DNA of 64,000 nt from Dehalococcoidia bacterium (GTDB lineage Bacteria > Chloroflexota > Dehalococcoidia > SM23-28-2 > RBG-16-64-32), in contig DAOUBD010000054.1 of assembly GCA_034432935.1 (NCBI GenBank), positions 52 through 64,051 of the forward strand. Reading direction: 5' to 3'. Positions within the stretch are counted from its first letter, which is position 1; each line of letters starts with the position of its first letter. A model generated the notes under the pieces. The model was not told where the DNA came from and ran no database searches. It saw only the letters and a program-made list of their open reading frames with translations. The position numbers and the translations under genes were made by a program. Below are positions 4,148 through 25,890 of the stretch, in pieces.

Positions 4148-4341
4148 TCCTCAATGGACCGCAGGAGGAAGTTACGGGATGGCCGCCCTTAACGTATGGG
4201 CACCCGCTACGCCTGTCAACGGGGCTATGTCACGACTGGCGTGCGGACATTATGGCAAGAACGTGGCGAGAGACGCATGAGACACTGGCCTCGGAAAACG
4301 CGCCAGCGGCAGGCTGCGCCTTACCGAGGAGGCGATACCGG

Positions 4342-4737
4342 ATGTCCGGCAAGGTCATAGTGTTGGTATCAGATCTTGACGACGCCAAGCACGGCGAGAT
4401 CAGCATAGTGGAGAACGCCCAGAAGGCGGCCCGGCTCGTGGAGACGCTTCTAGAAGCTGGCTTCGAGCAGGAGCGGATTCGCATCTTCGACGGCACTGAG
4501 ATGTCGATGCACGTCACCCACAGGCCGGTGGTTGCCCTCATGGAAGCAGGTCTGGATGAAGAGGACCGGCACAGCCGCGGGGCCGAGCGGGCCCAGACGG
4601 AGGAAGCACCCGCCGAGGCGGAAGGCGAGCCAGAGGAGGTAGCCCCGAAGGCTAAGGCAGAGCTGGTGGAAGAGGTGGCCGCGGTCCCATTCTTCAAGGA
4701 CGGCGTACGGTTCTCAACCCTCTTCCGGCCTGCCTAG
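4342..4737 (+). CDS. hypothetical acidic protein
   Basis: ATG at 4342 preceded by GAGGAGG; protein-like composition with an E/A-rich tail; followed by a stem-loop terminator. A competing antisense ORF (4230..4697) was judged artefactual. Confidence 0.4.
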   Translation: MSGKVIVLVSDLDDAKHGEISIVENAQKAARLVETLLEAGFEQERIRIFDGTEMSMHVTHRPVVALMEAGLDEEDRHSRGAERAQTEEAPAEAEGEPEEVAPKAKAELVEEVAAVPFFKDGVRFSTLFRPA

Positions 4738-4761: not shown

Positions 4762-4795
4762 GCCCCTAGGAGCGAGGACATAATGTCCTCGCTTC
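4762..4795 (+). terminator. stem-loop (GCGAGGACA-TAA-TGTCCTCGC) followed by a T-rich run
   Basis: Perfect 9-bp inverted repeat at 4762-4782, then TTCCTCTTGTATT; a rare AT-rich run in this genome. Confidence 0.4.
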
Positions 4796-4934: not shown

Positions 4935-6242
4935 ATGATGACCGAACGAGGAAAGAGCCCCGCAAACGCCCCTGCGCCAGCGGACCAGCCTCCAGCCGGC
5001 CCGCCCCCGGGCATGACCATCGAGCGGATGATCCGGGACCGCTACGACGGTAAGGGCGAGCGGGATATCTTCGCCAAGGCGGAGGAGTTCACACTGGTGG
5101 AGCAGGCCCGGCAGTTGGGCCTGTATCCGTTTTTCCAGGCCCTGGACAGCAACGACGGGCCGGAAGGCCAGATCTATGGCAAACGCGTCTTGATGTTCGG
5201 TTCCAACAACTACCTAGGGTTGACCCGCCACCCATACGTCATAGAGGCAGCCAAGAACGCCCTTCTCCAATACGGCACCTCCATGACGGGGTCCCGCTTG
5301 CTGAACGGCAGCACCCACCTGCACGAGGAGCTGGAGGCGCGCATCGCCCGGTTCGTGCGGAAAGAAGCCGCCATCGTCTTCACCACGGGTTATCTGGCCA
5401 ACCTGGGCACCATCTCGGCCTTGGTCAACAAGAGAGCGGTGGCCGTGGTGGACAAGGCGGACCATGCCAGCATTTACGACGGATGCCAGTTGGCCGACGG
5501 TGAAATGGTGCGCTTCAAGCACAACGATCCGGCGCATCTGGACGCGGTCTTGCGGCGCATCGGCCAGAAGGCCGCGCTGGTGGTGGTCGACGGGGTATAC
5601 AGCATGGGGGGCGACATCGCGCCGCTGCCCAAGATTGTGGAGACGGCCCGGCGGCACGGCGCCCGCGTAATGGTAGACGACGCTCACGCCATCGGGGTCA
5701 TAGGCGAGGGCGGCCGCGGGACGGCCTCCCACTTCGGCATAGAAGACCAGGTGGACCTGATAATGGGCACCTTCTCCAAGTCCCTCGCCTCCATAGGCGG
5801 CTTCGTCGCCGGGCCGAAGCGAGTCCTGGAGTGGGTCCGGCACTTCGGACGGGCCCTGATGTTCAGCGCTAGCCTGCCGCCAGCCTCCACCGCGGCGGCG
5901 CTCGCGGCGCTGGACGTCCTGGAGCGGGAGCCCGAGATCGTCGACCGGCTGCGGCGGCTTTCGGCCATGTGGCGGGACGGGCTCCGCAGTCTCGGTTTCG
6001 ACATAGGCCAGTCTCAGACGCCCATAGCTCCCGTGGTAGTGGGAGACGAATATACCACCGTGACGTTCTGGAAGATGCTGCTGGAAGAAGGCGTGTACGT
6101 GAACCCCGTCATCTATCCAGCAGTGCCGATGCGGGAGGCGATCCTCCGCACGAGCTGTATGGCCACCCACACGCCGGAGCAGATCGAGCAAGCGCTGGAG
6201 AAGTTCCGCACCGTTGGCCGGAAACAGGGTCTCATCCCCTAG
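4935..6242 (+). CDS. class II aminotransferase of the alpha-oxoamine synthase family, serine palmitoyltransferase-like (alternatively BioF/KBL)
   Basis: FGSNNYLGL..TGY.AN...VDDAHA..GTFSKSL PLP-lysine region; ~60-aa N-terminal extension as in SPT/KBL; 435 aa. Confidence 0.8.
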   Translation: MMTERGKSPANAPAPADQPPAGPPPGMTIERMIRDRYDGKGERDIFAKAEEFTLVEQARQLGLYPFFQALDSNDGPEGQIYGKRVLMFGSNNYLGLTRHPYVIEAAKNALLQYGTSMTGSRLLNGSTHLHEELEARIARFVRKEAAIVFTTGYLANLGTISALVNKRAVAVVDKADHASIYDGCQLADGEMVRFKHNDPAHLDAVLRRIGQKAALVVVDGVYSMGGDIAPLPKIVETARRHGARVMVDDAHAIGVIGEGGRGTASHFGIEDQVDLIMGTFSKSLASIGGFVAGPKRVLEWVRHFGRALMFSASLPPASTAAALAALDVLEREPEIVDRLRRLSAMWRDGLRSLGFDIGQSQTPIAPVVVGDEYTTVTFWKMLLEEGVYVNPVIYPAVPMREAILRTSCMATHTPEQIEQALEKFRTVGRKQGLIP

Positions 6243-6276
6243 CACTGCCGCAGAGAGCGTCATAGAGGTCGCGCCC

Positions 6277-7392
6277 GTGAGCACGAAGGCCGACCTGGAG
6301 GCCTTCATCCGTCTGCCCTGGCGGCTGTACCAGGGCAACCCCAACTGGTGCCCGCCCCTGCTTCTCCTCCAACGGCAGCTATTCTCGCCCAAGCACAACG
6401 CCTTCTACCAGCACGCCGATGTCCAGCTCTTCCTAGCCCGCAGGGGCGGGCAGCCCGCCGGGCGCATCTCGGCGCACATAGACCACGAGCACAACCGCTT
6501 CCACGGAGAGCGCACTGGCTTTTTCGGTTTCTTCGAATCGGAGGATGACCCCGAAGTGGCCGGCGCTCTCCTCTCGGCGGCAGAGGAGTGGCTACAGGCG
6601 AGGGGCATGGATCGGGTCCGGGGACCGATGAACTTCTCAACCAACGGCGAGGTCGGCTTCTTGCTAGAGGGGTTCGATTCACCCCCTGTCATCATGATGC
6701 CCTACACCCCGCCGTACTACCTGCGCCTGGTGGAGGGCTGCGGCTACCGCAAGGCCAAGGACCTCTACGCCTGGTACTGGCGCATGCAGCCGGTGCCGCC
6801 GGGGCCCCCCGCTCGCATGGTAGAAGAGCTGAAGGCCCGGCCCGAAGTGAAGGTGCGGTGGGCCCAGAAGAGCCGGTTCAAGGCTGAAGTGCGGACGATC
6901 CTCGACCTGTACAACGATGCCTGGAGCGAAAATTGGGGGTTCGTGCCGGCAACGGAGGCCGAGGCGGCGCAAATGGCCCGGGAGCTCAAGCTGATCGCCG
7001 ATCCGTACCTCGTGCCCTTCGTGGAGATCAACGGGGTGCCGGCTGGCGTGGCCCTGGCCGTGCCCAACCTCAATGAGGCCATCCACGACCTGGACGGCAA
7101 GCTGCTGCCCTTCGGCTGGCTGAGGCTCCTCTGGCGGCTCAAGGTGAAACGCCTCAGGAGCGGGCGGCTGCTCCTCCTGGGCATCCGCAAGGAGTTCCGC
7201 ACGCGTCGCTACGCCGGTCTCGCCTATCTGTTGTGCGACGCCGTCTACCGCGGCGCCATCGCTCACGGCTACCAGTGGGGCGAATTCTCCTGGACGCTGG
7301 AGGACAACGGGCTGATCAACGCCCTTATCACCAAGATCGGCGCCCACATGTACAAGAAGTACCGGATCTACGAAAAGGCTCTGGCGCCATGA
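6277..7392 (+). CDS. large GNAT-superfamily N-acyltransferase (candidate bacterial ceramide synthase-type enzyme)
   Basis: ~371-aa ORF in frame with TTG 6214; I prefer GTG 6277, just after the upstream stop. Sequence FFGFFESEDD..MNFSTNGEVGFL is GNAT-like; stop overlaps the next gene start (ATGA at 7389). Confidence 0.55.
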   Translation: MSTKADLEAFIRLPWRLYQGNPNWCPPLLLLQRQLFSPKHNAFYQHADVQLFLARRGGQPAGRISAHIDHEHNRFHGERTGFFGFFESEDDPEVAGALLSAAEEWLQARGMDRVRGPMNFSTNGEVGFLLEGFDSPPVIMMPYTPPYYLRLVEGCGYRKAKDLYAWYWRMQPVPPGPPARMVEELKARPEVKVRWAQKSRFKAEVRTILDLYNDAWSENWGFVPATEAEAAQMARELKLIADPYLVPFVEINGVPAGVALAVPNLNEAIHDLDGKLLPFGWLRLLWRLKVKRLRSGRLLLLGIRKEFRTRRYAGLAYLLCDAVYRGAIAHGYQWGEFSWTLEDNGLINALITKIGAHMYKKYRIYEKALAP

Positions 7393-8369
7393 AGGTCTTG
7401 GTCACCGGGGCATCGGGCTTTTTGGGGTCCCACGTCGCCGAAACCCTTGCCGGGTTGGGCCACGAGGTCAGGACCCTCGTGCGGAGCACCAGCAGCCGGG
7501 CGTTCCTCACCTTTCCCCGCGAAGAAGCCGTGGGTGACGTTACGCAGCCGGAGACGCTGGCGGCCGCTGTAGCTGGCGTCGACGTAGTGGTGCACGCGGC
7601 GGGATTGGTCAAGGCGCGTTCGGAAGCGGAATTCGCGTCGGTGAATGCGCGGGGCACAGCCAATCTTATCTCTGCCATCGAGGCTCACGCCCCCGGCCTG
7701 AAACGCTTCATCTACATTTCGAGCCTGGCGGCCCACGGCCCCAGCGAAGACGGCCAGCCGCGCCCGGCCGATGCCCCGCCGAGGCCGGTGACTGCCTACG
7801 GGCGCACCAAGCTGGCAGGCGAGGAGATCACCAGGGCTTCGTCCCTGGCCGCCCGCTCCGTAATCTTCCGCCCCCCGGTTATCTACGGACCGCGGGACCC
7901 CGCCCTTGTCCCCTTCTTCCGTCTGGCCCGCATGCGCCTAGCTCCGCTTCTCATGGGTGGTTCCAACCGCATCTCCATCGTCTACGTCGACGACATAGCC
8001 TCGGCCATCGCCCTGGCGGCTACCGCGGAGGCGCCGGTGGCGGGAAAGACCTACTGCCCCGAAGACGGTCAGCCCCATACGTGGCGAGAGCTGTTAGCAG
8101 CGGTCGAACGGGCCACCGGCCGGCGTACGCTGCGCCTCGGCGCGCCCCGCTGGGCGTTCTCCGCTGCTGCCGTTGCTAGTGAAGCCTTCGGCATGCTCCT
8201 GCGCCGGCCCGTTTCCCTCACCCGCGAGAAGGTGCAGGAGATGGCCGAGCCGCACTGGGTGTGCTCTGCCGAGTCGCTGCGCCGGGACCTGGGGTGGGCG
8301 CCCAAAGTGGACATATGGGAGGGTGCCCAGCGGACCTGCGACTGGTACCGGCAGCACGGTTGGGTCTGA
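7389..8369 (+). CDS. NAD(P)-dependent epimerase/dehydratase-family SDR (candidate ketosphinganine/oxidised-ceramide reductase)
   Basis: MKVLVTGASGFLGSHV Rossmann motif; 326 aa; ATGA coupling to the GNAT gene. Confidence 0.75.
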   Translation: MKVLVTGASGFLGSHVAETLAGLGHEVRTLVRSTSSRAFLTFPREEAVGDVTQPETLAAAVAGVDVVVHAAGLVKARSEAEFASVNARGTANLISAIEAHAPGLKRFIYISSLAAHGPSEDGQPRPADAPPRPVTAYGRTKLAGEEITRASSLAARSVIFRPPVIYGPRDPALVPFFRLARMRLAPLLMGGSNRISIVYVDDIASAIALAATAEAPVAGKTYCPEDGQPHTWRELLAAVERATGRRTLRLGAPRWAFSAAAVASEAFGMLLRRPVSLTREKVQEMAEPHWVCSAESLRRDLGWAPKVDIWEGAQRTCDWYRQHGWV

Positions 8370-8371
8370 GG

Positions 8372-9451
8372 TTACACCCGCCCGTCCTCAACCGCCTCGT
8401 CAGCTGGGATGCCGTTCGAGGGGCCTGGCCGGGGCCGGAGAAAGAGGAAGTCCGAGGGCGTCATGCGCAGGGCGACGGCCGCCAGCGGGCCGGAAGCGAA
8501 GTACGGGAGCGCCAGCATGACGTGGCTGAAGATCGAGAAGGCGGCGGCCTTGCTTTCATCGACCCCAAAAGCCACCAGAAGCCCCGCGATCGCCAGCTCG
8601 AAGACCCCCAGGCCGGCCTGGGTGAGGGGAACAGAAACAGCTATCGTGGCGGTTACCACTACCAGCAGGTAGACGGCGGGCGAAAGGTCAAGCCCCAGGG
8701 CGCGGCCGCAGGCGTAGTACATGAGGGCCTCGCATAGCCACGCTGCATGAGAAGTCCAGGCCACCGTGAACATCGCCCCCGGCCTGCGAAAGGCCTGGAG
8801 CCCTTGTCCAAAGGCACGGATTTCCACGGCTATGCGGGCCCGCCAGCGGCCTTCAGGCTGGCGCTGGGCAACTGCCGGGGCGGCAGCATGCCGCGCTAGC
8901 CAGCGCGCCGCCGCCAGGCCTACGGCCAACACGAGGCCATAAACGAGGGCCAAGGGCCACAGAAAGCGCGCCTCCTGGTGAAGCACCAGGCCCAGGATGA
9001 TGAAGGTGCAAAAGGCCACGATATCGGTAAGTTTTTCCGAGAGGAGCGTCGCGATAATGCTGGAGGCGCTGAGGCCCGTTCTGCGGCGTAGGAACTGCAC
9101 GCGCAAGAACTCCCCGGCCCTTAGGGGGAACGCTAGGTTGGTGGCCACCCCCACCACCGCGGTTAGGAACAGGAAGGTCAGGCTGAGGCGCCGCATAGGA
9201 GCGAAGAACTGCCGCCAGCGGATGGCCCGGAACCAATCTGACGCTAGGTTGGCGGCAAAGGCCAGCGGCAGCCACCACGGGTTGGCAGCCTCCAGCTCCT
9301 CCCTCACGGCCCCGATATCGACCCGCCACAAAAGCCCGCCCAGGAGGAGTGAGGCGAGGGCCAACTGGGCCAGGAAACGGGCGAAGGGGAAGCTCCGGCG
9401 GAGGAGGCCAGGTGCGGCTACCGCCGCGGCTTCGGTGGGATACTCCATCAC
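8372..9451 (-). CDS. integral membrane protein, lysylphosphatidylglycerol-synthase TM-region-like (flippase-like UPF0104)
   Basis: 359 aa, about 8 hydrophobic helices; convergent with the SDR gene (3-bp gap). Confidence 0.55.
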   Translation of the reverse strand: MMEYPTEAAAVAAPGLLRRSFPFARFLAQLALASLLLGGLLWRVDIGAVREELEAANPWWLPLAFAANLASDWFRAIRWRQFFAPMRRLSLTFLFLTAVVGVATNLAFPLRAGEFLRVQFLRRRTGLSASSIIATLLSEKLTDIVAFCTFIILGLVLHQEARFLWPLALVYGLVLAVGLAAARWLARHAAAPAVAQRQPEGRWRARIAVEIRAFGQGLQAFRRPGAMFTVAWTSHAAWLCEALMYYACGRALGLDLSPAVYLLVVVTATIAVSVPLTQAGLGVFELAIAGLLVAFGVDESKAAAFSIFSHVMLALPYFASGPLAAVALRMTPSDFLFLRPRPGPSNGIPADEAVEDGRV

Positions 9452-12378: not shown

Positions 12379-13980
12379 CTAGGAACCGAAGGGCTGTCCG
12401 GGGCCGCTACAGCCTTGCGGCACCGTCACCGCTAAGCCGGCGACGTGACGCAGCAGGAGGAGGGCGTCCGCAACGTCGATCTGCGCCGAGCAGTCCACAT
12501 CGCCGGCCTTTGTGGCGCAAAGGCCCAGATTCGGCAGGCCAGCGGTCCGCCGCAGGATCTGCAACGCATCCGTGGCATCGATCCCCCCTTCGCAGGTGAC
12601 GTCACCCGAGAGCAACGGCCCGGCCAGCGGCACCTGGGCAAGCGCGCCGTCTGGCACGACGTAGAGGGTCTGTCCCCGGCCGGAGTCCAGCAGCACCTCG
12701 CGCATCCCGGCGTCAAGGAGCACCCGGTATCCGCCGACTATGACCCACTCCTCCGCCGCTGTTAGCTCGCGAAACCTTGTGTAGGCCTGGGGTATCAGGG
12801 GGACCTGCCCGAGCATGCCGGGCACGAGGACGTGCACGTCCTCCCAGCGGAAACCCATATCGGTAAAGGTGTCCGGGTCCGGGACCCAGAAACGCGCCCG
12901 TCCGTACACCACCCACACCCTTGCGTCTCCTGCCTCCTGGAGGAGGGTGCCATCGGGAGGGACAGCCGGCCGAAGGGCCAGGAACCCATCGGGGGCTACC
13001 TGGACAGAGGCCGGGTCCAGGCCCAAGCTGCGGACTGCCTCCAGGTCGGAAATGCCGAAGCGCCCGCCTCCCTCCAGAAGGTAAACGTCGCTAGAGGAGG
13101 ATTCGCGCACGAGGCAGCCGTCCTTCCAGGAGACCCAGCAGGGAGCCGGCACGGTGGGGTAGCTCCGCAGCCACTCCCAAACGTCCGCGGGCACGACGCC
13201 CCTGCGCCAGACGCTGACCCTGGCGGCGCCCATGGCGTTGGCTGCGTGTACGGCGGGCGCAAAACGCTCCGCAGTGCTGTCCCCCTGAAGCATGGGGACG
13301 TACTCCAGGGAGCGGTTGGGAGCAACCTGCGCCAGGTCTTCATGGGCCTGGAGCACACAGCGGCCTGGATCGTCCCACGGCTGCTGCCCGGAATAGGTCT
13401 CCCAGAAGCACATGGGGAGGGCCACGTCGGCCTGCGCCAGCCAGGCACGGACCGCGGCGGGCTCCCACCACTGAGGCCTGGGGTCATAGATCACGCCGAG
13501 CTGGGCCGAGGGCCGCTCGGACCTGAGGCGGCTCCAGAAGGCCTCCGCCAGATACCAGCAGTCCTCACCGCAGAAGCCGGAAAAGGCCTCCACGTCGGCG
13601 TAGAGGCCCTTCACGCCGCTGTCCAGCACCTCCTCCGCCATCCGCAGTTGGGCGTCGGCATCCCGGCCCTTGGGGACGAACCAAGCGTAGACGTCGATGC
13701 CCTGGGCCGCGTACACGCCGATGAGCTCCTTGATCCGGCCAGGGCCATCGATGGCCAGAGGGTGGTGGTCGTAGGCCGCCATCCAGTCTGTGCCATCGTG
13801 GGTCTTGAGATAGACGGCCCGGATCGGGAGGTCAGCATCGGAGGCGCTGCCTTCGGGATAATCACGGCTGAGCTGCCAGATAACCGCCTCCACGCGGACG
13901 GGATCCGGGGCCGCTGAAAAGCCCCGGCTTGGGGTTGACGCCAGCACTGCTAAGACCGCAGCGGCCAGAAGCCAGCGCAT
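12379..13980 (-). CDS. secreted protein: N-terminal signal peptide, putative glycoside-hydrolase-like TIM-barrel domain, C-terminal dockerin-like repeat pair
   Basis: Start ATG 13980 (MRWLLAAAVLAVLA signal). C-terminal DVTCEGGIDATDALQILRRTAGL and DVDCSAQIDVADALLLLRHVAGL resemble dockerin type I Ca-binding repeats. The longer track ORF from 14223 would overlap the next gene. Confidence 0.55.
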   Translation of the reverse strand: MRWLLAAAVLAVLASTPSRGFSAAPDPVRVEAVIWQLSRDYPEGSASDADLPIRAVYLKTHDGTDWMAAYDHHPLAIDGPGRIKELIGVYAAQGIDVYAWFVPKGRDADAQLRMAEEVLDSGVKGLYADVEAFSGFCGEDCWYLAEAFWSRLRSERPSAQLGVIYDPRPQWWEPAAVRAWLAQADVALPMCFWETYSGQQPWDDPGRCVLQAHEDLAQVAPNRSLEYVPMLQGDSTAERFAPAVHAANAMGAARVSVWRRGVVPADVWEWLRSYPTVPAPCWVSWKDGCLVRESSSSDVYLLEGGGRFGISDLEAVRSLGLDPASVQVAPDGFLALRPAVPPDGTLLQEAGDARVWVVYGRARFWVPDPDTFTDMGFRWEDVHVLVPGMLGQVPLIPQAYTRFRELTAAEEWVIVGGYRVLLDAGMREVLLDSGRGQTLYVVPDGALAQVPLAGPLLSGDVTCEGGIDATDALQILRRTAGLPNLGLCATKAGDVDCSAQIDVADALLLLRHVAGLAVTVPQGCSGPGQPFGS

Positions 13981-14000
13981 GGCACCTATCTTAGCACCGT

Positions 14001-15839
14001 CTACCAACTGCCGCCCCCTCCTCCGCCGCCGCCACCGCCCGAAGACCCGCCGCCGAAGCCGCTGCCGCCACTGCCGCCCGGAGTGGAGGCTATGGCTTGC
14101 GAAAGGCCTGACGCGAAGCTGGAGATGCTTTCGGCGAAGGCGACGGGCGCAAAGGCGTGCGTTCCGGAATACCACCCGGGTTGCTCCTCCCGCGCTGCCA
14201 GACCCTCGAAGGCCTTCGCCCACTTTTCTACGCAGCCGAAGACGATGGCATAGGGGAGGTATTCATGGAATATACCGGACCGCTCGGCAAACCGCTGCCG
14301 GTCGGTCTCAGCCGTGACCATATAGCGGCGAAAGCCCAAGCATCGGCGGTAAAGCAGGCGCCCGGAGGCGGTGCGCCTGGGCATGGCGGGAGCCAACAGG
14401 AAGAGGGCCCCTCCGGCAGCGGCGACGGGGAAACCGACCACCCCAGCTCCAGCGGCGGCGCCCAGAAGCCACACCGCTGTGGCGCCTACCGCGGCCACCA
14501 CTCCCCCACCGATGTGGTAGGCCAGGCGTACGGCCTCCGGGTTGTGTGGGAAAAGCCTTAGCCCGGCTACAGCCTCCTGGTAGAGGTCATCTTTCACCTC
14601 CGCCAGGTCCTTGTAGAACTTGTTCTTGAGATCATCCAGCTTCACTGTCTGGCCGGTCGCGAACAAGGCGTCAAGGAGGCGCCGCTCGTATGGCAAGAGA
14701 TGGCTGTCCTGCTTGTCCAAGCGTGTAAGTTGGTACGACCGTGACTTAAAGAAGCCGAGGACACCTCCCCCCTCCAGCTCATCGATCCGGAGATGGCCGC
14801 GTACCGCAAGGTCGATTATCGTCGCAGAGACGTCCAACGTATCAGCCCGCTCGTCCAACAGGACACCCATCTCCGCCGGCCGGAGCTTCCTCCCCGGGAC
14901 GGCTTCGGGCGGGCCGTACTCCACGACGATGGTCTCATGGGCGAAGAGCGGCCTGATGGTCTCAGCCGGCGTGTCCTTCGCATAGAACATGTCGCCGAAC
15001 CAACGATCCCGCCCGGCTAGCCACCACAGGCGCGCCAACAGAGCGACGGCAGCCAGGCCGGCCACCACCGCGATTGCCAGAGGCAAGGGCCGCAGACCCA
15101 AGAAGCCGGATATGTCATCCCACGGGTCAGTGCGGGCCGGCACCAGGACCAAGGGCGGTACCTGCACCGCCCCTTTCCGCAACCCGACAACGATGGTGAG
15201 GCCAGCGCCTGGCGGAAGCGGCATGGTGGCAACGAAGGAGGCAGAGCTCTCCCCCTCTGCGGACTGGCATGGGAGCGTCGAGCCTATGGCGCCTTGATAA
15301 CAGGCGACCCGCTCCAGGGCGCCGCCTGGCAGGCGGACCTCAGCGCTGGCCTCCTCGATGCCGACAGGCCAGGCGTTGCCGGTGACGTTCCAATAGAACT
15401 CGTCGTGGTCCGGGAAGGGGTTGAGCCCGCCCGCAACCCTGTAGGAGATGCGGTATCGCTGCTGGCCGGTTATCAGCCGGTCAGGGTCACCGATCTTGAT
15501 GCGCAGGTTCGGCCCGCCGCTGATGAGCTCATAGGGCCACGGGTTGACCCCATCGTCGACCGCGACGTCTTTGATAGTGATCGCCCTGTGGTACCGGGAA
15601 TCGTACTGGTACTCCACCGGAATGTCGCGGAAGATGCCGTGACGCTGGAGGGCGCCGAAGTCCACCAAGATGTCTTCTGTAACCTTGACGGCGCTGCTCT
15701 CGTCGATCTCATAGGTGACGTGGAACGACCGGATGGTCCAGCCCTCGGCGGCGCCGGCGGGCGGCGGGACAGGAGCCGACCAGAGCAGCAGGCTCCCTAA
15801 GAGCCCGGCCAGGGCAAGGGCGAGCTTCGCGCGCCTCAC
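14001..15839 (-). CDS. DUF2207-type membrane protein with C-terminal Gly-rich tail
   Basis: Signal peptide, central TM helices, ends ...GGSGGSGFGGGSSGGGGGGGGGGSW; 612 aa. Confidence 0.6.
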   Translation of the reverse strand: MRRAKLALALAGLLGSLLLWSAPVPPPAGAAEGWTIRSFHVTYEIDESSAVKVTEDILVDFGALQRHGIFRDIPVEYQYDSRYHRAITIKDVAVDDGVNPWPYELISGGPNLRIKIGDPDRLITGQQRYRISYRVAGGLNPFPDHDEFYWNVTGNAWPVGIEEASAEVRLPGGALERVACYQGAIGSTLPCQSAEGESSASFVATMPLPPGAGLTIVVGLRKGAVQVPPLVLVPARTDPWDDISGFLGLRPLPLAIAVVAGLAAVALLARLWWLAGRDRWFGDMFYAKDTPAETIRPLFAHETIVVEYGPPEAVPGRKLRPAEMGVLLDERADTLDVSATIIDLAVRGHLRIDELEGGGVLGFFKSRSYQLTRLDKQDSHLLPYERRLLDALFATGQTVKLDDLKNKFYKDLAEVKDDLYQEAVAGLRLFPHNPEAVRLAYHIGGGVVAAVGATAVWLLGAAAGAGVVGFPVAAAGGALFLLAPAMPRRTASGRLLYRRCLGFRRYMVTAETDRQRFAERSGIFHEYLPYAIVFGCVEKWAKAFEGLAAREEQPGWYSGTHAFAPVAFAESISSFASGLSQAIASTPGGSGGSGFGGGSSGGGGGGGGGGSW

Positions 15840-18227: not shown

Positions 18228-18457
18228 CCCAAACTTGGGTTAGGGGCAGGTTAGGGCCCCATTAGATTTCGGTAAGGAAAGCTTCTGGGGCCGCCGAAAG
18301 GCTGGCCCCTCTGGACTCGAGTCCCCTGGGGCGCTATCTTCCCAGTATGTTGGAGGGAGGACGGACGCCGTTGCAAAGGCCGGATATCTGTCCCGGGGAA
18401 GAGCTGCGAAAGGTGGAAGGTACATCACAAGGCGGCCAGGCGGAGCCGGGGGGATTC

Positions 18458-19408
18458 ATGTTGGGTCACCACGCGGATCAGCCCTTCGACTCGCCCCACC
18501 ACATCTTCGAGGTGCTGTGGGATGGACTTCGGGCCCTCGCCTCCCTTCAGGGGGGAACCATCCGGTTGCGGGGCCGTTACGGGCGTGACTTGACGCCCCT
18601 GTTCCCGGAGATCGTCCGTGCCGCAGCGGGGTTGACGGTGGACGCCGTCGTGGACGGGGCCATCGTAGCCCTCGACGGCGATGGCCGCCCTGCCTTCGGC
18701 CCTCTGGCGGCAAGGCTGATGGCTGGGGAGCCGGACGGGCCGCCGGCGGGGTTCCGCGTGGCCTTCCATGCCTTCGATATCCTGAGCTTTCAAGGGAGGC
18801 CGGTGGTGGACCTGGCCCTAGTCCGCAGGAAAGAGATCTTGCGCCGGGCCGTCAGGGGAGGCGGGATCATCTACGCTCCCGATTTCGTGACGGGGGAAGG
18901 GCTCCTGCTCTTCGAGGCGGCCCGGGCCTTCGGGGTCGATGGCATAGTGGCAAAGGACCTGCGGAGCCCTTACCTGCCAGGCGTTCGGAGCAGCCGATGG
19001 CTGGTGATCAGCCCCGTGCGGCGCAGCCGATTCGTTATCGCAGGCTACACCTACGGCGGCCGCTGGACGGGGCGCCACACCTCACGGGCGGAGGGCCCTT
19101 TCTCCTCCCTTCTCCTGGGCGCGTGGGACGGTCCCGGCCAGTTGCGATACGTGGGGGAGGTCACTGGGGCCTTTGCCGATGCGGCGCCCGCCATCGCCCG
19201 GCAGTTGGAGCCCCTGACAACGCGCCAGTGTCCCTTCCCTCAGGAGCCGGACGTCCGTCGCCTGGTCTTCTGGTGCCAGCCGTCCCTGTGCGCCCGCGTA
19301 CGCTTCGCCGGATGGAACCCAGACCGCACGCTTCGCTTCCCGATCTTCGAAGCTTTGCGCCCGGACGTGCCGGTCTCGGCCTGCCGATTGGAAGACGCCG
19401 GCGGATAA
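18458..19408 (+). CDS. ATP-dependent DNA ligase-domain paralog with substituted catalytic motifs (probably ligase-dead)
   Basis: Aligns along its whole length with the LigD ligase domain in this window, but motif I KxDG is LWDG, motif III DGEIV is DGAIV, and motif V WLKVKK is WLVISP. Motif IV (DGIVAK) and the OB-fold CPFxxEP are retained. ATG 18458 has an SD; an alternative ATG lies at 18347. Confidence 0.65.
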   Translation: MLGHHADQPFDSPHHIFEVLWDGLRALASLQGGTIRLRGRYGRDLTPLFPEIVRAAAGLTVDAVVDGAIVALDGDGRPAFGPLAARLMAGEPDGPPAGFRVAFHAFDILSFQGRPVVDLALVRRKEILRRAVRGGGIIYAPDFVTGEGLLLFEAARAFGVDGIVAKDLRSPYLPGVRSSRWLVISPVRRSRFVIAGYTYGGRWTGRHTSRAEGPFSSLLLGAWDGPGQLRYVGEVTGAFADAAPAIARQLEPLTTRQCPFPQEPDVRRLVFWCQPSLCARVRFAGWNPDRTLRFPIFEALRPDVPVSACRLEDAGG

Positions 19409-19422
19409 GCCCAGCACAAGCC

Positions 19423-22158
19423 TCAGCCAAGAGCCCCCTGGTCCGCGGCCTCCAGACTCGGGGATGCCGGCTCGGCCAGGAGCCCGGCTAGGTCGTGCTT
19501 CTCCTCCAGAATGCGGGCCCACAGGTCGCCTGCGTCCTCCAGGCGCGCTGGCGCCGTAACGATGGTGAAGTCCGCTGGGTGTGCGTTCGCCAACTCGTCC
19601 CACCGTAGGGGCATGGAGACGGAGGCCTCAGGCGTAGCCCGAGGCGAGTAGACCGATGCCAGGGTCTTGCCGCGGGCGTTCTGGTTATGGTCGTAGAACA
19701 CCTTGCCCCGCCGCTTCGCCACGGTCCATTCCATGGTCACATCCCGGGGATGCGCCCGCACCAGGAACCTCCCCAGGGTCTCGGCCACCGCTCTAGCGGC
19801 ATCGTAGTCGAGCCGCCGCTGGATGGGCACATAGACGTGGAGACCTGCGCGGCCCGAGGTCTTGAGGAAGGAAGACAGGGAGAGGGAGTCGAGGAGCTCC
19901 TTCAGGTAGAGGGCCACCTCGCAGGTTTTGGCGAAGGCCTTCCGGCTCGCCCCCGGCTCACCCGGTTGGGCAACGTACGGATCGAGGTCGAAGACGATGA
20001 AATCGGGGTAGTTCAGGAGGGAACCTCGGATCTTCTCCTCGGAACCAGCGAACTCCAGAGAGAGGTGATAGCCGTCTGGTTCCGGGTCGATCCGGGAGTA
20101 CCAGGTATGCAGCTCCAGCGTTCCCATTTGCCCTAACCAGAGGAGAGTAGGGAGGTTGTTGCACATCAGGTAATCGCCGTCGCCAGCGTTGGAGTCCGAC
20201 CAGAGACGGACGGTGGCCACAAATTCCGGCAGAGGCGCATCCCAGTGCTTCTGGTAGAAGCCCTCGCCGCGGATCCCATCGGGGTAGCGAGCCAGGGTGA
20301 GGGGCCTGTTCCGCAGGTGAGACAAGATGTAGGGGGAGACGCGGGCCAGGTAGGCGAGGAGGTCCCGCTTGGTCAAGGCGGGCCGGCCGTCCAGAGCTGG
20401 CCACATCTCCTTGTCCAGGTTGGTGAGGCTGATCTCGTAGCCTTCGACCCGCAGCGCCAGCTCGCCGGCGGGACGTGCGAGTTGCTCTAGCACGCCATGC
20501 ACCGTCTGGGCAGGAAGGCTATGTACGGCTCCAGGAGGCGGCGGTACCGGGGCCTCCCTGCGGACCTCCGCCGGCGCCTTATCCTCCCGCAAGCCAACGA
20601 AGACGGGTGAGCGCAGGCGGCCATCCGGCGTCCACTGGGCGAAGCGCACGCGGGCCACCAGTTTCGGCCTGACCCAGGTCGTAGGGGCGTTCAGCGGCGG
20701 CTCCTCAGCGAAGGGGCACTCCTCGGCCCGGAGGCGATCGAGGCGCTGACGTAGCGACGCCAGCGCTGAGTCATCGAAGCCGGCGCCCACGTGTCCGGCG
20801 TAGGTCAGGCGGCCATCCTCGTAGTAACCTAGCAGAAGGGCGCCGAAGGAGCCTGCCCGGCTACCTGCGCCAGCGCTGTAGCCTCCGATGACGAACTCGT
20901 CCTCCAGCGTCTTCTTGACCTTGAGCCAGGCGCGGGAGCGACGGCCCGCCTCGTAAAGGCTGTCCTTGCGCTTGGCGACGACACCCTCGAAACCGAGGGC
21001 GACTGCGGCCTCGTAGGCCTCTTCCCCATCCTCCTCGAAGTGCTCGAGAAGGCGCACCCCGTTCCGCGGGGCAAGTAGGGCAGACAAGAGCGCCTTGCGC
21101 TGCCAGAGGGGCGCGGCGCATAGATCCCAGCCCTCGGCGTAGAGAAGATCGAAGACGTAATAGACGACCGGTATTGCGGATTCGGCGCGCTGGATGTCGG
21201 CCGGGCGGGTGAGGCCCAAGCGCTGCTGGAGAAGATGGAAGGAAGGTACGCCGCGCTCATCCAAGGCGACGATCTCGCCGTCCAACACCAGGCTGCCCGC
21301 GGGTTGCTGGGCCAGCTCCCCCGCCAGAGACGGGTACTGAGCTGCCATGTCCAGGCCGCGACGGGAGAGGAGCCGCACCCGGCCATCGGCGACAATCGCT
21401 ATGGCCCTCACACCATCCAGCTTCGGCTCGAAGAACCAGCCCGGGGCCGAGAAGGGCCCCTCGGCCAGGGTGGCGAGCATCGGCTTCACGGCCAGGCGCA
21501 AGGGAGCCTGCCGGGCACCAGCCGCGTCCTGGGGGCGCACGATGAGCCGCTGGCCCCTGGGCGGCATGTGGCCCGCCTTCAGGTCCTCGATGGTGAGCCC
21601 GGACAGCACCGAGCGTTCCCGCGTCAGGACATCCTCGTCGCTAGTGGCGAAGGCATCGCGGTGCTTAATGAGCAGCCACTGGTTCTCGCCACGCCGCGTG
21701 CGCACCAGCGCCCAAGAGCCCTTCAACTTCTGGCCGCGGAGGAACAAGGAGAGCTTGCCCGCCTCCAGCCCTTCTCTGACTCGTCGCTCGGCCTCCCCGC
21801 GGTCATGGAACCAGAGCTGGCCGTCCTCTTCCGGGGAGTAGGTTCCGGCGTCCCAGACGATGACCTCGCCCGCGCCGTACTCGCCTCTGGGTATAACGCC
21901 CTCGAAGGAGGCATACTCCAGCGGGTGGTCCTCCACCATCATCGCCAAGCGCCGGCCCTTGGGGTCAAGGGAAGGGCCTTTCGGGATCGGCCACGATTTC
22001 AGGACGCCATCAACCTCCAGCCGGAAGTCGTAGTGCAGGCGCCTGGCGTTGTGCTTCTGGATAACGAAGATGAGGGGCCCCTCGGACGGCGCGCGCCCTT
22101 TGGGAGGCGGCTCCGGGGTGCGTTCGAAGTCCCTCTTCTGCTGGTACTCGTACAGCAT
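19423..22158 (-). CDS. ligD: multifunctional NHEJ DNA ligase LigD (phosphoesterase - ligase - polymerase order)
   Basis: N-terminal PE domain (KRDFERTPEP..FVIQKHNARRLHYDFRLE), ligase motifs (EPKLDGVR, EGVVAK, WLKVKK), C-terminal LigD polymerase/primase domain; start at ATG 22158 (MLYEYQQ). Confidence 0.9.
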   Translation of the reverse strand: MLYEYQQKRDFERTPEPPPKGRAPSEGPLIFVIQKHNARRLHYDFRLEVDGVLKSWPIPKGPSLDPKGRRLAMMVEDHPLEYASFEGVIPRGEYGAGEVIVWDAGTYSPEEDGQLWFHDRGEAERRVREGLEAGKLSLFLRGQKLKGSWALVRTRRGENQWLLIKHRDAFATSDEDVLTRERSVLSGLTIEDLKAGHMPPRGQRLIVRPQDAAGARQAPLRLAVKPMLATLAEGPFSAPGWFFEPKLDGVRAIAIVADGRVRLLSRRGLDMAAQYPSLAGELAQQPAGSLVLDGEIVALDERGVPSFHLLQQRLGLTRPADIQRAESAIPVVYYVFDLLYAEGWDLCAAPLWQRKALLSALLAPRNGVRLLEHFEEDGEEAYEAAVALGFEGVVAKRKDSLYEAGRRSRAWLKVKKTLEDEFVIGGYSAGAGSRAGSFGALLLGYYEDGRLTYAGHVGAGFDDSALASLRQRLDRLRAEECPFAEEPPLNAPTTWVRPKLVARVRFAQWTPDGRLRSPVFVGLREDKAPAEVRREAPVPPPPGAVHSLPAQTVHGVLEQLARPAGELALRVEGYEISLTNLDKEMWPALDGRPALTKRDLLAYLARVSPYILSHLRNRPLTLARYPDGIRGEGFYQKHWDAPLPEFVATVRLWSDSNAGDGDYLMCNNLPTLLWLGQMGTLELHTWYSRIDPEPDGYHLSLEFAGSEEKIRGSLLNYPDFIVFDLDPYVAQPGEPGASRKAFAKTCEVALYLKELLDSLSLSSFLKTSGRAGLHVYVPIQRRLDYDAARAVAETLGRFLVRAHPRDVTMEWTVAKRRGKVFYDHNQNARGKTLASVYSPRATPEASVSMPLRWDELANAHPADFTIVTAPARLEDAGDLWARILEEKHDLAGLLAEPASPSLEAADQGALG

Positions 22159-22192
22159 CCACCCCCAATTATGGCACCCCGGGGCCGGTTTA

Positions 22193-22215
22193 TGTGGATT
22201 TGTGGACGCTGTGGA
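22193..22215. promoter_or_regulatory. three direct TGTGGA repeats (spacing 8-9 bp) 35-57 nt upstream of the ligD start
   Basis: aTGTGGAtt TGTGGAcgc TGTGGAtaa read directly; candidate regulator-binding array or promoter element. Confidence 0.3.
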
Positions 22216-22515
22216 TAAATGGGTTGCCGGGCTGGGCAGCCGCAAGAGACAATGCAGGCGCTTCCCGACCCGATCCGCAGCGGTCCAGGAAGAAGGGACT
22301 CGCCGGGAGCCACGGGCGACCGAAAGCCCCGGCCGAGACCTGGAACCCAGAAGCCGCCGCGGTTCAAAGCGGGAAGCTTTTCTTTTGGAGCGCCGGGTTG
22401 AAGGGGCTCACGCTGGCATAAGGCTCCCGTCCCCTAGCCGAGAGGGTCCTCCTTTGCTATTGTGAATGTGTCCCGAAAGTTAGTCCCAAACCTATCGCGA
22501 AGGGGGCGAAACAGA

Positions 22516-23010
22516 ATGGGCACGCTCCTGCGAACGCTTCTGGCACTCGGTGCGTCTCTGGCCCTCATATCGGCGGTGGCGTGCGGCGGCGGCGAAGAGG
22601 CCACCCCTACGCCAACGAGGGCCGCGACTACAGCGCCTGCGGCCACGGCGACGGCCACCAAAGCCGCCACGCCAGTTGCGGGCACAAGTAGCCCCGCGGC
22701 CGTCACCCTGAAGATAGCCTCTGTGGCGCCCAACCCGGCGAAGGTCGGCGATAAGGTGACCATCACCTTTAATACCCAGCCCGGGAACGTCATCGGCCTC
22801 CAGGTAACGGCGCCCAACGGGCAGATCGCTATTCAAACGCAGCTCACGGCCGGCGGGGACGGCACCGCCACCCTCGATCAGGTGGTGAACACGCCAGGGA
22901 CCTGGAAGGTCGAGGCGGCGGCCGGACGGACGGTTGCCGACCTGTTGGCGCTGCAACTGAACCCGGTGCCCGGCCCGCATTCGGACGACGCCACCTTCGA
23001 GGTGCAGTAG
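22516..23010 (+). CDS. lipoprotein (signal peptide with lipobox VACGG), T/A-rich linker, beta-rich domain
   Basis: MGTLLRTLLALGASLALISAVAC lipobox; 164 aa from ATG 22516. Confidence 0.5.
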   Translation: MGTLLRTLLALGASLALISAVACGGGEEATPTPTRAATTAPAATATATKAATPVAGTSSPAAVTLKIASVAPNPAKVGDKVTITFNTQPGNVIGLQVTAPNGQIAIQTQLTAGGDGTATLDQVVNTPGTWKVEAAAGRTVADLLALQLNPVPGPHSDDATFEVQ

Positions 23011-23019
23011 CAGAGGGGC

Positions 23020-23721
23020 TCAGCGGGGCGGCTGCGCAGCCGGCGCAGTACCCTCGACGATACGTCCATCCTTCATCCAGACGATGCGGTCCGCCGTGGC
23101 CGCCACGTTCATATCGTGCGTCACCAAGAGAATGGTGACGTGGCGGCTCTCGCGTATGCTGCGGAAGAGGGCCAAGACCTTCTCCGCCGCCGCCGAGTCC
23201 AGGTTGCCCGTAGGCTCGTCGGCCAAGAGGATGGAGGGGTCGTTGGCCAGGGCCCTGGCGATGGCCAGCCTTTGCCGCTCGCCGCCCGAGAGGCGGGGGG
23301 GCTGGAACTTCTCCTTGGCCGACAGCCCCACCGCAGCCAGGAGCTCCCGCGCCTTCTCCCTCTGTTCCCGGTGGCTCATGCCGTTGCTGAACATGGCGAT
23401 GGCCACGTTCTCCAAGGCGTTCAGGTGGGGCAGGAGGTTATGTAGCTGGAAGACGAGGCCCACCTCCGTGCGCCGGAAGCGGTCGTCCCCGGCCTCCCGC
23501 AGGTCCTTGCCGTTGACCAAGATGGTGCCAGCGGTCGGCACATCCAGCGCCGCAACGAGGTGCAGCAGGGTGGACTTGCCGCAGCCCGATGGCCCGGTGA
23601 TGGCCACGAACTCTCCCCGCTTTACCGTGAGATTGACCCCATCTAGGGCCCTGACGATGCCGCCATCGAACAGCTTGACCACGTTCCTCAGCTCGATGGC
23701 AGGCGGGGCACTATCACTCAT
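23020..23721 (-). CDS. ABC transporter ATP-binding protein (MacB/LolD family)
   Basis: GPSGCGKST Walker A, LSGGERQRLAIARAL signature, LLADEPTGNLD Walker B. Confidence 0.85.
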   Translation of the reverse strand: MSDSAPPAIELRNVVKLFDGGIVRALDGVNLTVKRGEFVAITGPSGCGKSTLLHLVAALDVPTAGTILVNGKDLREAGDDRFRRTEVGLVFQLHNLLPHLNALENVAIAMFSNGMSHREQREKARELLAAVGLSAKEKFQPPRLSGGERQRLAIARALANDPSILLADEPTGNLDSAAAEKVLALFRSIRESRHVTILLVTHDMNVAATADRIVWMKDGRIVEGTAPAAQPPR

Positions 23722-24832
23722 GCCGTAGCGCCTCGAGGGGCTTCAGCAAGGCGGCCCTGAGGGCCGGGTAAAGGGCCCCGATGAAGGCCATGCCGATGGC
23801 GATGCCCAGAGCGCGCCCGAAGACATCCCCGGGGTAGTCAGGTTGAAAGACGCCGACCAGGTCAGGGACCTCCCGGATCAGTTGGATGGCGACGAGACCG
23901 GCGAGAAGCCCGACGCCAGCGCCGGCCAAGGCGATGAGCACGGCCTCGCCCATGACCAGGGCCAGGACCCGGAAGCGGCTCCACCCAACTGCCCGCATGA
24001 CGCCAAACTCGCGGGTGCGTTCGAAGACGGACATGACGGTGGTGTTCATTACGCCGATAGCGCCGATGACCAAGGCCAGGATGGAGGCCCCCACGTTGGC
24101 TGCGCTGATGAGCTTCAGGTTGCGGTCTATGCGGCCGAACTCGGACTCCGTCCGCACCGTGGCCATCTCCGGATTGTCCTTGTCGATCTTGCTACGCAAA
24201 GCGTCGACATCGACGCCAGGCTTGACCCGAACGAAGATCAGGGTTACGTTCCCCGGCTTCCGCTCCATAGCCTGGAGCGTAACCAGAGGGAGCATAGAGG
24301 CGGAGTCCCCGAAGACCTGGCCGGTCTGGAAGATCCCAACTACCTTGAACTCCTGGTCTTCGATCTTCAGCGTGTCGCCCACCGATTTCCCGAGATCCCT
24401 CGCCGCCCGGTAGCCCAGCATGATCTCGTCTTGCGCTGTCGCGCCGTAGGCCCGGCCGTCCACCACCTGGACGCCGAAGGGCTCTAGGTGCTCCGGCGGC
24501 ATGCCTAGCTCCAGGAAAAAGGGGTGCTCCTTGTCCAACTCCACGACGGCGATAAGCACCCCGACGGCGCTCTCCACCTCCGGGTAGGAGGCGATGCGTC
24601 TCAACTGCTCCTCGTCAAGCGAGCTGTAGAGCACATCGGAGACGCCCTTCTGGCCGATGGTGAAGTCGGCGGAGCCGGTGCGCAAGATGGAGATGGCGGT
24701 CTGGCGCAGGCTGAAGGTAAGGACCCCCAGGGCGAAGACCGTCATGATGGCGATGGCGACCCCTCCGCCGGTGAGGGCTGACCGGACCTTGCGGGTGAAG
24801 ACGTTCCGGACTATCAGCCAGAGAAAGGACAT
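23714..24832 (-). CDS. ABC transporter permease, FtsX/MacB-like with periplasmic domain
   Basis: 372 aa; N-terminal TM, large extracytoplasmic domain, C-terminal 3 TM; overlaps the ATPase gene by 8 nt. Confidence 0.75.
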   Translation of the reverse strand: MSFLWLIVRNVFTRKVRSALTGGGVAIAIMTVFALGVLTFSLRQTAISILRTGSADFTIGQKGVSDVLYSSLDEEQLRRIASYPEVESAVGVLIAVVELDKEHPFFLELGMPPEHLEPFGVQVVDGRAYGATAQDEIMLGYRAARDLGKSVGDTLKIEDQEFKVVGIFQTGQVFGDSASMLPLVTLQAMERKPGNVTLIFVRVKPGVDVDALRSKIDKDNPEMATVRTESEFGRIDRNLKLISAANVGASILALVIGAIGVMNTTVMSVFERTREFGVMRAVGWSRFRVLALVMGEAVLIALAGAGVGLLAGLVAIQLIREVPDLVGVFQPDYPGDVFGRALGIAIGMAFIGALYPALRAALLKPLEALRHE

Positions 24833-24930
24833 CTGCCGGTCCTGTTGTCAAAGTCTGTCTGGGCGGCGATATGCACTCTGGAGTGTCTAAACGCTGGCCG
24901 CGGGCTTGGGTTAACCGTGGGCGCCAGCAG

Positions 24931-25758
24931 CTAGCCGGCGGCCGCCCTGGTCCGCCTCTCCGGCCGCGCCGTCCGGGGCTTCCTCTCCTCCTGGCGTTTC
25001 TTCTTGGCGGCCTCCACACTGGCCCTGAGGGCCGTCATGATGTCAGTGACCTTGGCGGCCTGGGGCACGGCGGCCTCACGCACCTCTTGCCCTTCGAGCT
25101 TGGCTTGGATCACCTCCATCAGGGCCTCCCGGTACTCATCCCGGTACTTGGAGGGGTCGAACTCTTCGGACAAGAGGTCGATGAGGGTGAAGGCCATGGC
25201 CAGTTCCTTTTCGGAGACCTCTACCTCCGGCAGCGCTGGCGCCTCCCGGATCTCGTCAGGATAGTACAGGGTTTCCAGCACCAGCGCGCCGTCCACGGGC
25301 CGAAGGGCGCATAGCTGCTCCTTGTTGCGAATGGCGATCTTGGCCAGCCCCGTTAGGCCCTTCTCCCGCAACGCTCGCAGCAGCAGGGCGAAGGGCTTGG
25401 CGCCCTTGGCCTCGGGTTCCAGGTAGTACGTCCGTTCATAGAAGATGGGATCGATCTCCTGCGAGCGGACGAAGGCGGTCAACTCCACGGTCTGCTTGCT
25501 GGGCAGGGGCAGCTTGGCGAAGTCCTCTTCGGTTACCACGATGTATTCGCCCTTGGCATACTCGTACCCCCGGACGACCTCGTCCCACTCCACCGCCCGC
25601 TCATGGGTGGGGCACCATCGCAGCTGCTTGAGGCGCGCGCCGCAATCCTTGTGTAGTTGGTTGAAAGATATGTCCTTGCTCTCCGTAGCTGCATAAAGCT
25701 TTACCGGGATGCTCACCATCCCAAAGCTGATCACGCCGTTCCAGATCGATCGCGGCAT
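24931..25758 (-). CDS. ku: NHEJ DNA end-binding protein Ku
   Basis: MPRSIWNGVISFGMVSIPVKLYAA.. matches the bacterial Ku core; basic C-terminal tail; start at ATG 25758. Confidence 0.9.
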   Translation of the reverse strand: MPRSIWNGVISFGMVSIPVKLYAATESKDISFNQLHKDCGARLKQLRWCPTHERAVEWDEVVRGYEYAKGEYIVVTEEDFAKLPLPSKQTVELTAFVRSQEIDPIFYERTYYLEPEAKGAKPFALLLRALREKGLTGLAKIAIRNKEQLCALRPVDGALVLETLYYPDEIREAPALPEVEVSEKELAMAFTLIDLLSEEFDPSKYRDEYREALMEVIQAKLEGQEVREAAVPQAAKVTDIMTALRASVEAAKKKRQEERKPRTARPERRTRAAAG

Positions 25759-25890
25759 CGCCGTTTTCCTTTCGAGGGCGCGCCTTCCGGGCCACCTGCG
25801 CCACCGATCTATCTTACCGCAACGTCGCACGCCGGCATACGGGCGCCCCATGGCCGCCCCGCTGCCTCGATTCCGGTTAGCGGCTATCAT

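Follow-up and report, generated by a model that had tools for sequence, protein, structure and literature searches.

The locus described here lies near the beginning of a 64,000-nucleotide stretch (hereafter the window) of contig DAOUBD010000054.1, from the Dehalococcoidia bacterium assembly GCA_034432935.1. It consists of three genes on the forward strand (4935-8369), encoding an alpha-oxoamine synthase (AOS) that resembles serine palmitoyltransferase (SPT, gene spt), a tandem-GNAT N-acyltransferase candidate of the bCerS (bacterial ceramide synthase) family, and an extended short-chain dehydrogenase/reductase (SDR) that resembles CerR; a convergent gene for a flippase-like membrane protein follows (Table 1). 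An earlier note, made from the letters of the window, had read the trio as a candidate for the Caulobacter-type ceramide pathway in compact form. All four open reading frames (ORFs) and the ATGA overlap that it described are present, and its reading is supported by the homology of all three proteins and by a conserved gene order. The trio combines homology to experimentally studied clusters, intact motifs, translational coupling and a gene order found across phyla, and it probably forms one operon for a minimal Caulobacter-type bacterial ceramide (dihydroceramide) pathway, as judged from sequence.

Table 1. Genes and other features of the putative ceramide locus; positions are those of the window.
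Feature	Position	Strand	Details
Terminator-like hairpin, 12-bp stem and T-rich tail	4769..4795	+	Separates the small upstream ORF from the AOS gene
Spt-like alpha-oxoamine synthase (AOS)	4935..6242	+	435 aa; Pfam Aminotran_1_2, E 9e-64
bCerS-type (YghO / CC_1154 family) tandem-GNAT N-acyltransferase candidate	6214..7392	+	392 aa from TTG 6214, 371 aa from GTG 6277
CerR-like extended SDR, NAD(P)-dependent 3-keto reductase candidate	7389..8369	+	326 aa; Pfam Epimerase, E 2e-37
Stand-alone MprF-type transmembrane ('flippase-like', LPG_synthase_TM) protein	8372..9451	-	359 aa; PF03706, E 9.5e-41; convergent

The three genes are translationally coupled, each overlapping the next. For the AOS, an alternative start at ATG 5013 agrees with the 409-aa gene calls in the nearest relatives. 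The GNAT gene has only two in-frame starts, TTG 6214 and GTG 6277; the former is favoured because a conserved N-terminal strand (VIEVAPV, aligning with MIKIEKV of Escherichia coli YghO) lies upstream of 6277, and it results in an overlap of 29 nt with the AOS gene. The ATGA overlap at 7389-7392 can be read directly in the sequence, the SDR start codon ATG occupying 7389-7391 and the GNAT stop codon TGA 7390-7392, while 2 nt lie between the stop codon of the SDR gene and that of the convergent gene for the membrane protein. The hairpin upstream of the AOS gene, which is a consensus match only and of a kind whose number in the region is not above shuffle expectation, is the probable 5' boundary of the operon. 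The GC content of the region (0.645-0.665) is the same as in the remainder of the window, where the other genes have housekeeping functions (shikimate, purine and histidine biosynthesis, AlaRS, TopA). Given this uniform composition and these neighbours, the trio is therefore no recent island.

The decisive component of the trio was the tandem-GNAT bCerS-family gene, ACYLTRANSFERASE. General searches were little informative for its product: the only Pfam match was a weak one to Acetyltransf_1, a sequence search of the PDB gave no match, and the family lacks an NCBIfam model, with 0 matches for the window GNAT, for YghO and for the Caulobacter GNAT. Direct comparison gave a 49% identity over 371/371 residues (E 3e-89) to a Caulobacter endophyticus protein whose gene stands in the sphingolipid cluster at the place of CC_1154. 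This Caulobacter-genus ortholog, recognised by synteny, and the published link between YghO and CC_1154 served as stand-ins for the C. crescentus protein. The order in C. endophyticus is cerR-like SDR, spt-like AOS, acylglycerol-kinase-like, CDP-alcohol phosphatidyltransferase, lptF-like, GNAT and nucleotidyltransferase, a layout that agrees with the one described for CC_1164 to CC_1153 (PMC11324152). With E. coli YghO, the window GNAT has 40% identity in an alignment of 376 residues (E 5e-101); YghO (ECD_02850) has been listed as the homolog of CC_1154 of Caulobacter (PMC9386255), an N-acyltransferase also known as bCerS. On these similarities the GNAT is unambiguously assigned to the bCerS family, in agreement with the bCerS-type acyltransferase proposed in the earlier note. 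As a yardstick, C. crescentus CC_1154 and its orthologs from Hyphomonas and Sphingomonas, which are likewise alphaproteobacteria, share no more than 41-45% identity.

Members of this family are very numerous. More than 7900 matches were obtained in 90% clusters, and 8392 clusters at 50% identity were found at E<=1e-3, 1655 of them at E<=1e-30. Full-length homologs with 39-44% identity were detected by tblastn of plasmid records in Roseomonas, Rubrobacter, Streptomyces, Sphingomonas and E. coli (yghO), the Roseomonas and Rubrobacter proteins being 43% and 42% identical, respectively, to the window GNAT. Their annotation is uneven: the E. coli and Rubrobacter homologs are labelled only 'protein YghO' or 'hypothetical protein', and on Roseomonas gilardii plasmid pRo-1 (L003, 10001-11158) a bCerS-family gene in a sphingolipid-type cluster carries the RefSeq name 'dATP pyrophosphohydrolase', apparently a misannotation that has been propagated. 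Some representatives are much longer than the window protein (P0230, 780 aa; P0167, 648 aa; P0243, 630 aa; P0121, 784 aa). In three of these the GNAT region is C-terminal in a protein of 630-780 aa, and one has two tandem copies; the proteins of 630-780 aa are possible fusions, in which the N-terminal part could, for instance, be of AOS size.

The AlphaFold2 model of the GNAT (pLDDT 85.8, pTM 0.84) has a tandem-GNAT fold. Its best PDB matches were tandem-GNAT acyltransferases (2wpw, 5kf1, MshD), followed by aminoacyl-phosphatidylglycerol (aminoacyl-PG) synthase and FemX folds. The predicted fold is compatible with acyl-CoA-dependent N-acylation.

The comparisons made for the AOS place it closer to validated SPTs than to BioF, KBL, ALAS or CqsA. 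Its two top NCBIfam models are serine palmitoyltransferase equivalogs (SerpalmtaseCFB, 489.7 bits; Spt-BetaP, 428.7 bits), ahead of BioF/Kbl-family models (402, 394 for bioF and 381 for Kbl), ALAS (266) and CqsA (218). Its best PDB match, and nearest match among known structures, is the SPT of Sphingobacterium multivorum (3a2b, 8guh; 388 bits, 47% identity), followed by Sphingomonas SPTs (~300 bits), a Thermus BioF/KBL (287) and KBLs (up to 271), so that SPT models and structures score ~90-100 bits above BioF and KBL; cysteate acyltransferases also match (7u7h, 242 bits; 28eh, 238 bits). The AOS is 43% identical to the biochemically validated Spt of E. coli B type. In an alignment with the S. 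paucimobilis and S. multivorum SPTs, the catalytic set is conserved: the lysine that binds pyridoxal phosphate (PLP; in TFSKS), the stacking histidine (DHASI), the Asp/His pair of DDAHA and the equivalent of Arg390 in LR(T/C)S. The loop variant NPV(V/I)xPAVP is common to the AOS and the S. multivorum enzyme.

In a neighbour-joining (NJ) tree with 200 bootstraps and two outgroups (E. coli Kbl and BioF), the AOS formed a group with further Dehalococcoidia proteins (97-98%), nested in a larger one (80%) to which the S. multivorum SPT also belongs, and the sister of this group is the Rhodobacteria SPT clade (100%). The window AOS thus lies in the Sphingobacterium-type branch and not in the Rhodobacteria branch to which that of Caulobacter belongs. 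The earlier note had asked whether the AOS might cluster with BioF or KBL in a biotin or threonine context. It falls instead with the S. multivorum SPT, outside E. coli Kbl and BioF, at moderate support (60-80%), and no homologs of BioA/B/C/D or Tdh were found in the 64-kb window; with SPT models and structures as its best matches, the Spt-like assignment holds.

The SDR carries intact extended-SDR motifs (VTGASGFLG, ISSLAA and AYGRTK). Over its full length it can be aligned with E. coli CerR (31% identity, E 4e-36) and with the CerR proteins of Caulobacter and Phenylobacterium (30-34%), and the SDR encoded next to bCerS in Sorangium is 48% identical to it. HpnA and OleD, the NCBIfam models nearest to it, are also the top two for E. 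coli CerR; HMM matches of similar strength (136 bits) tie it to these two other extended SDRs, and its identity to the Caulobacter and E. coli CerR proteins is 29-32%. OleD is a 3-oxo-lipid reductase. In an NJ tree with HldD as sole outgroup, the SDR and the CerR clade of Proteobacteria are joined at a node with 100% bootstrap. The protein begins at the Rossmann motif without an N-terminal extension, as does E. coli CerR. Of the earlier claim that the SDR is a CerR, the full-length homology and the conserved position stand, while the resemblance to proteobacterial CerR, at 29-32% identity, is weaker; its CerR membership rests more on conserved position than on sequence. Nor is it a classical reductase of the Tsc10/BT_0972 type: the 3-ketodihydrosphingosine reductase of Bacteroides, BT_0972, is a classical Tsc10-like SDR (PMC9278070), whereas the window encodes an extended, CerR-type SDR.

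The order AOS-GNAT-SDR is present in all eight Dehalococcoidia-type contexts compared (GNAT identity 63-95%) and recurs identically on a Rubrobacter plasmid, and the arrangement is therefore not due to chance. The nearest named homologs and the best genome loci come from Dehalococcoidia metagenome-assembled genomes (MAGs), with which the window has flanking synteny in common, so that its source is probably an uncultured, Dehalococcoidia-like member of the Chloroflexota; tRNA and Rfam RNA added nothing to this placement. A genome scan with one genome per species yielded 80 GNAT-homolog loci, 56 of them with at least 3 kb on both sides; within 10 kb of the GNAT, an Spt-like AOS was present in 33 of these 56 loci, a CerR-like SDR in 29, both in 25, and AcpR or AasR in 11. 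Overall, conservation of the trio spans Chloroflexota, Actinomycetota, Myxococcota and Pseudomonadota. In four of the eight related Dehalococcoidia contexts a second, ordinary GNAT of 262-268 aa (Acetyltransf_1) is encoded directly upstream of the AOS (L090 4893-5681, L091 4858-5646, L092 4888-5679, L093 859-1665); the window, with only ~200 nt between 4737 and 4935, lacks this gene.

All three protein families of C. crescentus, Spt (CC_1162), bCerS/CerS (CC_1154) and CerR (CC_1164), have homologs in the window. Compared with the C. endophyticus cluster, the identities are 49% for the GNAT, 43% for the AOS and 31% for the SDR, with the catalytic motifs intact in the window proteins. The two loci differ in organization and content. 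In the window the genes are contiguous and overlapping, whereas Caulobacter cerS lies ~8 kb from spt. Caulobacter further possesses the acyl carrier protein (ACP) AcpR, the acyl-ACP synthetase AasR, LptF2/G2, a ceramide kinase and a CDP-alcohol transferase. In the 64-kb window, tblastn with the E. coli AcpR and AasR queries gave no match (E<1e-3), and no LptF/G paralog (LptF2/G2), ceramide kinase or CDP-alcohol transferase was found. With respect to the Rhodobacteria-type five-gene system (Spt, AcpR, AasR, CerR and CerS), the specialised ACP/synthetase part thus has no counterpart in the window.

A similar difference separates the window from the cluster of E. coli B and BL21(DE3), ECD_02850-02854 (yghO, aasR, epi, acpR, spt), whose YghO, Spt and epimerase-type reductase are 40%, 43% and 31% identical to the window proteins. 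Next to yghO, the E. coli record has genes annotated as fatty acyl-AMP ligase, NAD-dependent epimerase, acyl carrier protein and class I/II aminotransferase; lptF/lptG paralogs adjoin this block. Padilla-Gomez et al. described the same BL21(DE3) block as aasR, epi, acpR and spt, and assayed the E. coli Spt biochemically (PMC9386255). That cluster needs a specialised ACP and acyl-ACP synthetase, and its yghO is divergent from the other four genes. The same gene order is found in a trio on plasmid 1 of Rubrobacter radiotolerans (WP_143533761, WP_051589994, WP_084264127), which like that of the window is on one strand and without ACP or synthetase. Its AOS, GNAT and SDR are 45%, 42% and 36-37% identical to the window proteins, and the AOS has the same NCBIfam profile. 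The Rubrobacter trio is plasmid-borne and uncharacterised, and it is followed by an LTA-synthase-family gene instead of the LPG_synthase_TM gene of the window. Since no dedicated ACP or acyl-ACP synthetase is encoded in the window, its trio is a minimal module, as in Rubrobacter. The ceramide genes of Bacteroidota, unlike those of the window, are unclustered (PMC11334938). The locus is a well-formed instance of a known pathway and not a new type of system.

In the proposed pathway, the Spt-like PLP enzyme would form 3-ketodihydrosphingosine by condensing a long-chain acyl thioester with an amino acid, for which L-serine is the most likely candidate; the tandem-GNAT of the bCerS family would then N-acylate the long-chain base, and the CerR-like extended SDR would reduce the 3-keto group with NAD(P)H. 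We infer the substrates and the order of the last two steps; in the Caulobacter model, acylation precedes reduction. The acyl donor is probably acyl-CoA or a housekeeping acyl-ACP, because AcpR and AasR are missing from the window and the AOS is nearest to the Sphingobacterium-type SPT. As the SDR starts directly at its Rossmann motif, we also infer that all three steps are cytoplasmic.

Several points weigh against this interpretation. The AOS falls under every Spt equivalog cutoff of NCBIfam (CFB, 489.7 against 640; BetaP, 428.7 against 500; AlphaP, 337 against 670), and its scores to the BioF/Kbl-family models are likewise under their curated cutoffs. The Spt equivalog models are clade-specific: SerpalmtaseCFB is also the best model for the AOS of the Rubrobacter trio, again under the cutoff, and E. 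coli Spt clears BetaP (599.9). In the AOS tree, E. coli Kbl and BioF, the two outgroups, are placed outside the Spt-like group with a bootstrap of only 60-64%. For the SDR, identity to the CerR proteins of Proteobacteria is no higher than 29-32%, and its tree has a single outgroup. Caulobacter CerR has been reported to be periplasmic (PMC11087976); because the host of the window is probably a monoderm-type Chloroflexota, the periplasmic model cannot hold for it as such.

The order of the last two steps is where an alternative has the most room. The same enzymes could act in the eukaryote-like order, the SDR reducing 3-ketodihydrosphingosine to sphinganine, which the GNAT would then N-acylate, with no change in the end product. 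Such a reduce-first order has been proposed for Caulobacter by Olea-Ozuna and co-workers (PMC11324152), and CC_1154 is said to acylate 3-oxo-sphinganine and sphinganine alike. The compartment argument that favours acylation first in Caulobacter (PMC11087976) is moreover inapplicable here, as the three window proteins have no N-terminal extension and are presumably cytoplasmic. Acylation before reduction nevertheless fits the gene order AOS-GNAT-SDR and the build-up of oxidised ceramide in the Caulobacter cerR mutant (PMC11087976). The sequence itself favours neither order, and we regard reduction first as possible, if somewhat unlikely.

Other alternatives concern the AOS. The product could be a non-canonical amino lipid, formed if the AOS used alanine (giving a 1-deoxyceramide), glycine or cysteate (giving a capnine-like sulfonolipid). 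Its position under all Spt equivalog cutoffs would accommodate this, 1-deoxyceramides produced by this set of enzymes have been described (PMC11334938, supplement), and the cysteate acyltransferases 7u7h and 28eh are detectable homologs (242 and 238 bits). However, SPTs score ~150 bits above these acyltransferases, and the grouping with the validated S. multivorum SPT argues against another amino-acid substrate, so that we consider a non-canonical product improbable. Still less credible is an ordinary BioF or KBL beside an unrelated GNAT and SDR. The bioF (394 bits) and Kbl (381 bits) models and the bifunctional BioF/KBL of Thermus (287 bits) do give high scores to the AOS, but these are lower than the SPT scores; the window encodes no BioA/B/C/D or Tdh; and genes that overlap, that are conserved across four phyla and that include a clear bCerS-family member are hardly to be expected of unrelated neighbours. 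A serine-based ceramide pathway remains our preferred reading of the trio.

The protein encoded convergently to the SDR matches PF03706 over residues 27-321 of 359 and TIGR00374 with 81 bits (cutoff 43). It corresponds to the transmembrane/flippase region of MprF without the C-terminal aminoacyl-PG synthase domain, the MprF model NF033480 reaching 22 bits against a cutoff of 600. The earlier note had drawn attention to this flippase-like neighbour; it is present and convergent as described, and its association with the trio is confined to the closest relatives. The gene follows the SDR convergently in five of the eight related contexts, with varying outer flanks, and is absent from the other three, which are more distant. 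No LPG_synthase_TM gene was found by tblastn near bCerS in any of the 80 scan loci, which include those of three Dehalococcoidia and two Anaerolineae MAGs. A correspondence to the Caulobacter 'flippase' CC_1166 was rejected, CC_1166 being of Wzx type (IPR002797). A functional link of the flippase-like protein to the trio is possible, on the evidence of synteny at the level of the clade, and the protein may, speculatively, move or modify the pathway product. That it is a dedicated ceramide flippase or exporter of a minimal, ACP-independent operon in a cell without an outer membrane is a doubtful proposition; if true, it would offer a candidate protein for lipid translocation, a step described as still unidentified in Caulobacter (PMC11087976). 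In relatives, a PAP2 phosphatase accompanies the LPG_synthase_TM gene (L085 13409-14041), and in JGI contigs a Cytidylate_kin2 gene is located between it and the SDR gene. These neighbours could hint at head-group chemistry or be coincidental.

Among the other genes of the window, the one at 4252-4737 (+), between an AddB-like nuclease gene and the trio, encodes a small acidic protein of ~130 aa from MSGKVIVLV (161 aa listed), for which there was no match in Pfam or NCBIfam. Its homologs (47-88% identity) occupy the same position in five related contigs; in the window, a terminator-like hairpin comes after the gene. A wax ester synthase/diacylglycerol acyltransferase (WS_DGAT_cat, E 6e-62, and WS_DGAT_C) is encoded at 26496-27962 (-), ~17 kb from the trio, and is the second neutral-lipid acyltransferase of the window. 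The stretch at 18347-25890 contains a set for non-homologous end joining, comprising a stand-alone ATP-dependent ligase (18347-19408), a 940-aa LigD (phosphoesterase, ligase and primase-polymerase) and Ku (24931-25890); Ku and LigD are also found near the trio in related JGI contigs. A 614-aa ORF at 12379-14223 (-) had no Pfam match at E<=1e-3, and at about the same position related contigs encode a DUF2207 protein of 614-618 aa and another protein, of 537 aa, that matches Dockerin_1 faintly.

The earlier note had called sphingolipid synthesis unexpected in such a lineage, a view superseded by published predictions (PMC11087976, PMC11334938). Sphingolipid genes have been mentioned for Gram-positive groups (PMC11087976), and Ding et al. 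reported Spt-like genes in 218 Chloroflexota MAGs and a correlation of ceramides with Anaerolineae (PMC11334938). The Chloroflexota ceramide proposal has since been repeated with a request for culture studies (PMC12619533); the literature found contains no report of ceramide from a Chloroflexota culture or enzyme. Bacterial sphingolipids are now considered widespread, and Chloroflexota have been proposed as major, as yet unproven, producers of sedimentary ceramides (PMC11334938, PMC12619533). The locus provides a clean and complete three-gene operon from this phylum, with intact catalytic motifs, that is suited to a heterologous test of the proposal. Its heterologous expression would also show whether the pathway can run without the specialised ACP system of Proteobacteria.

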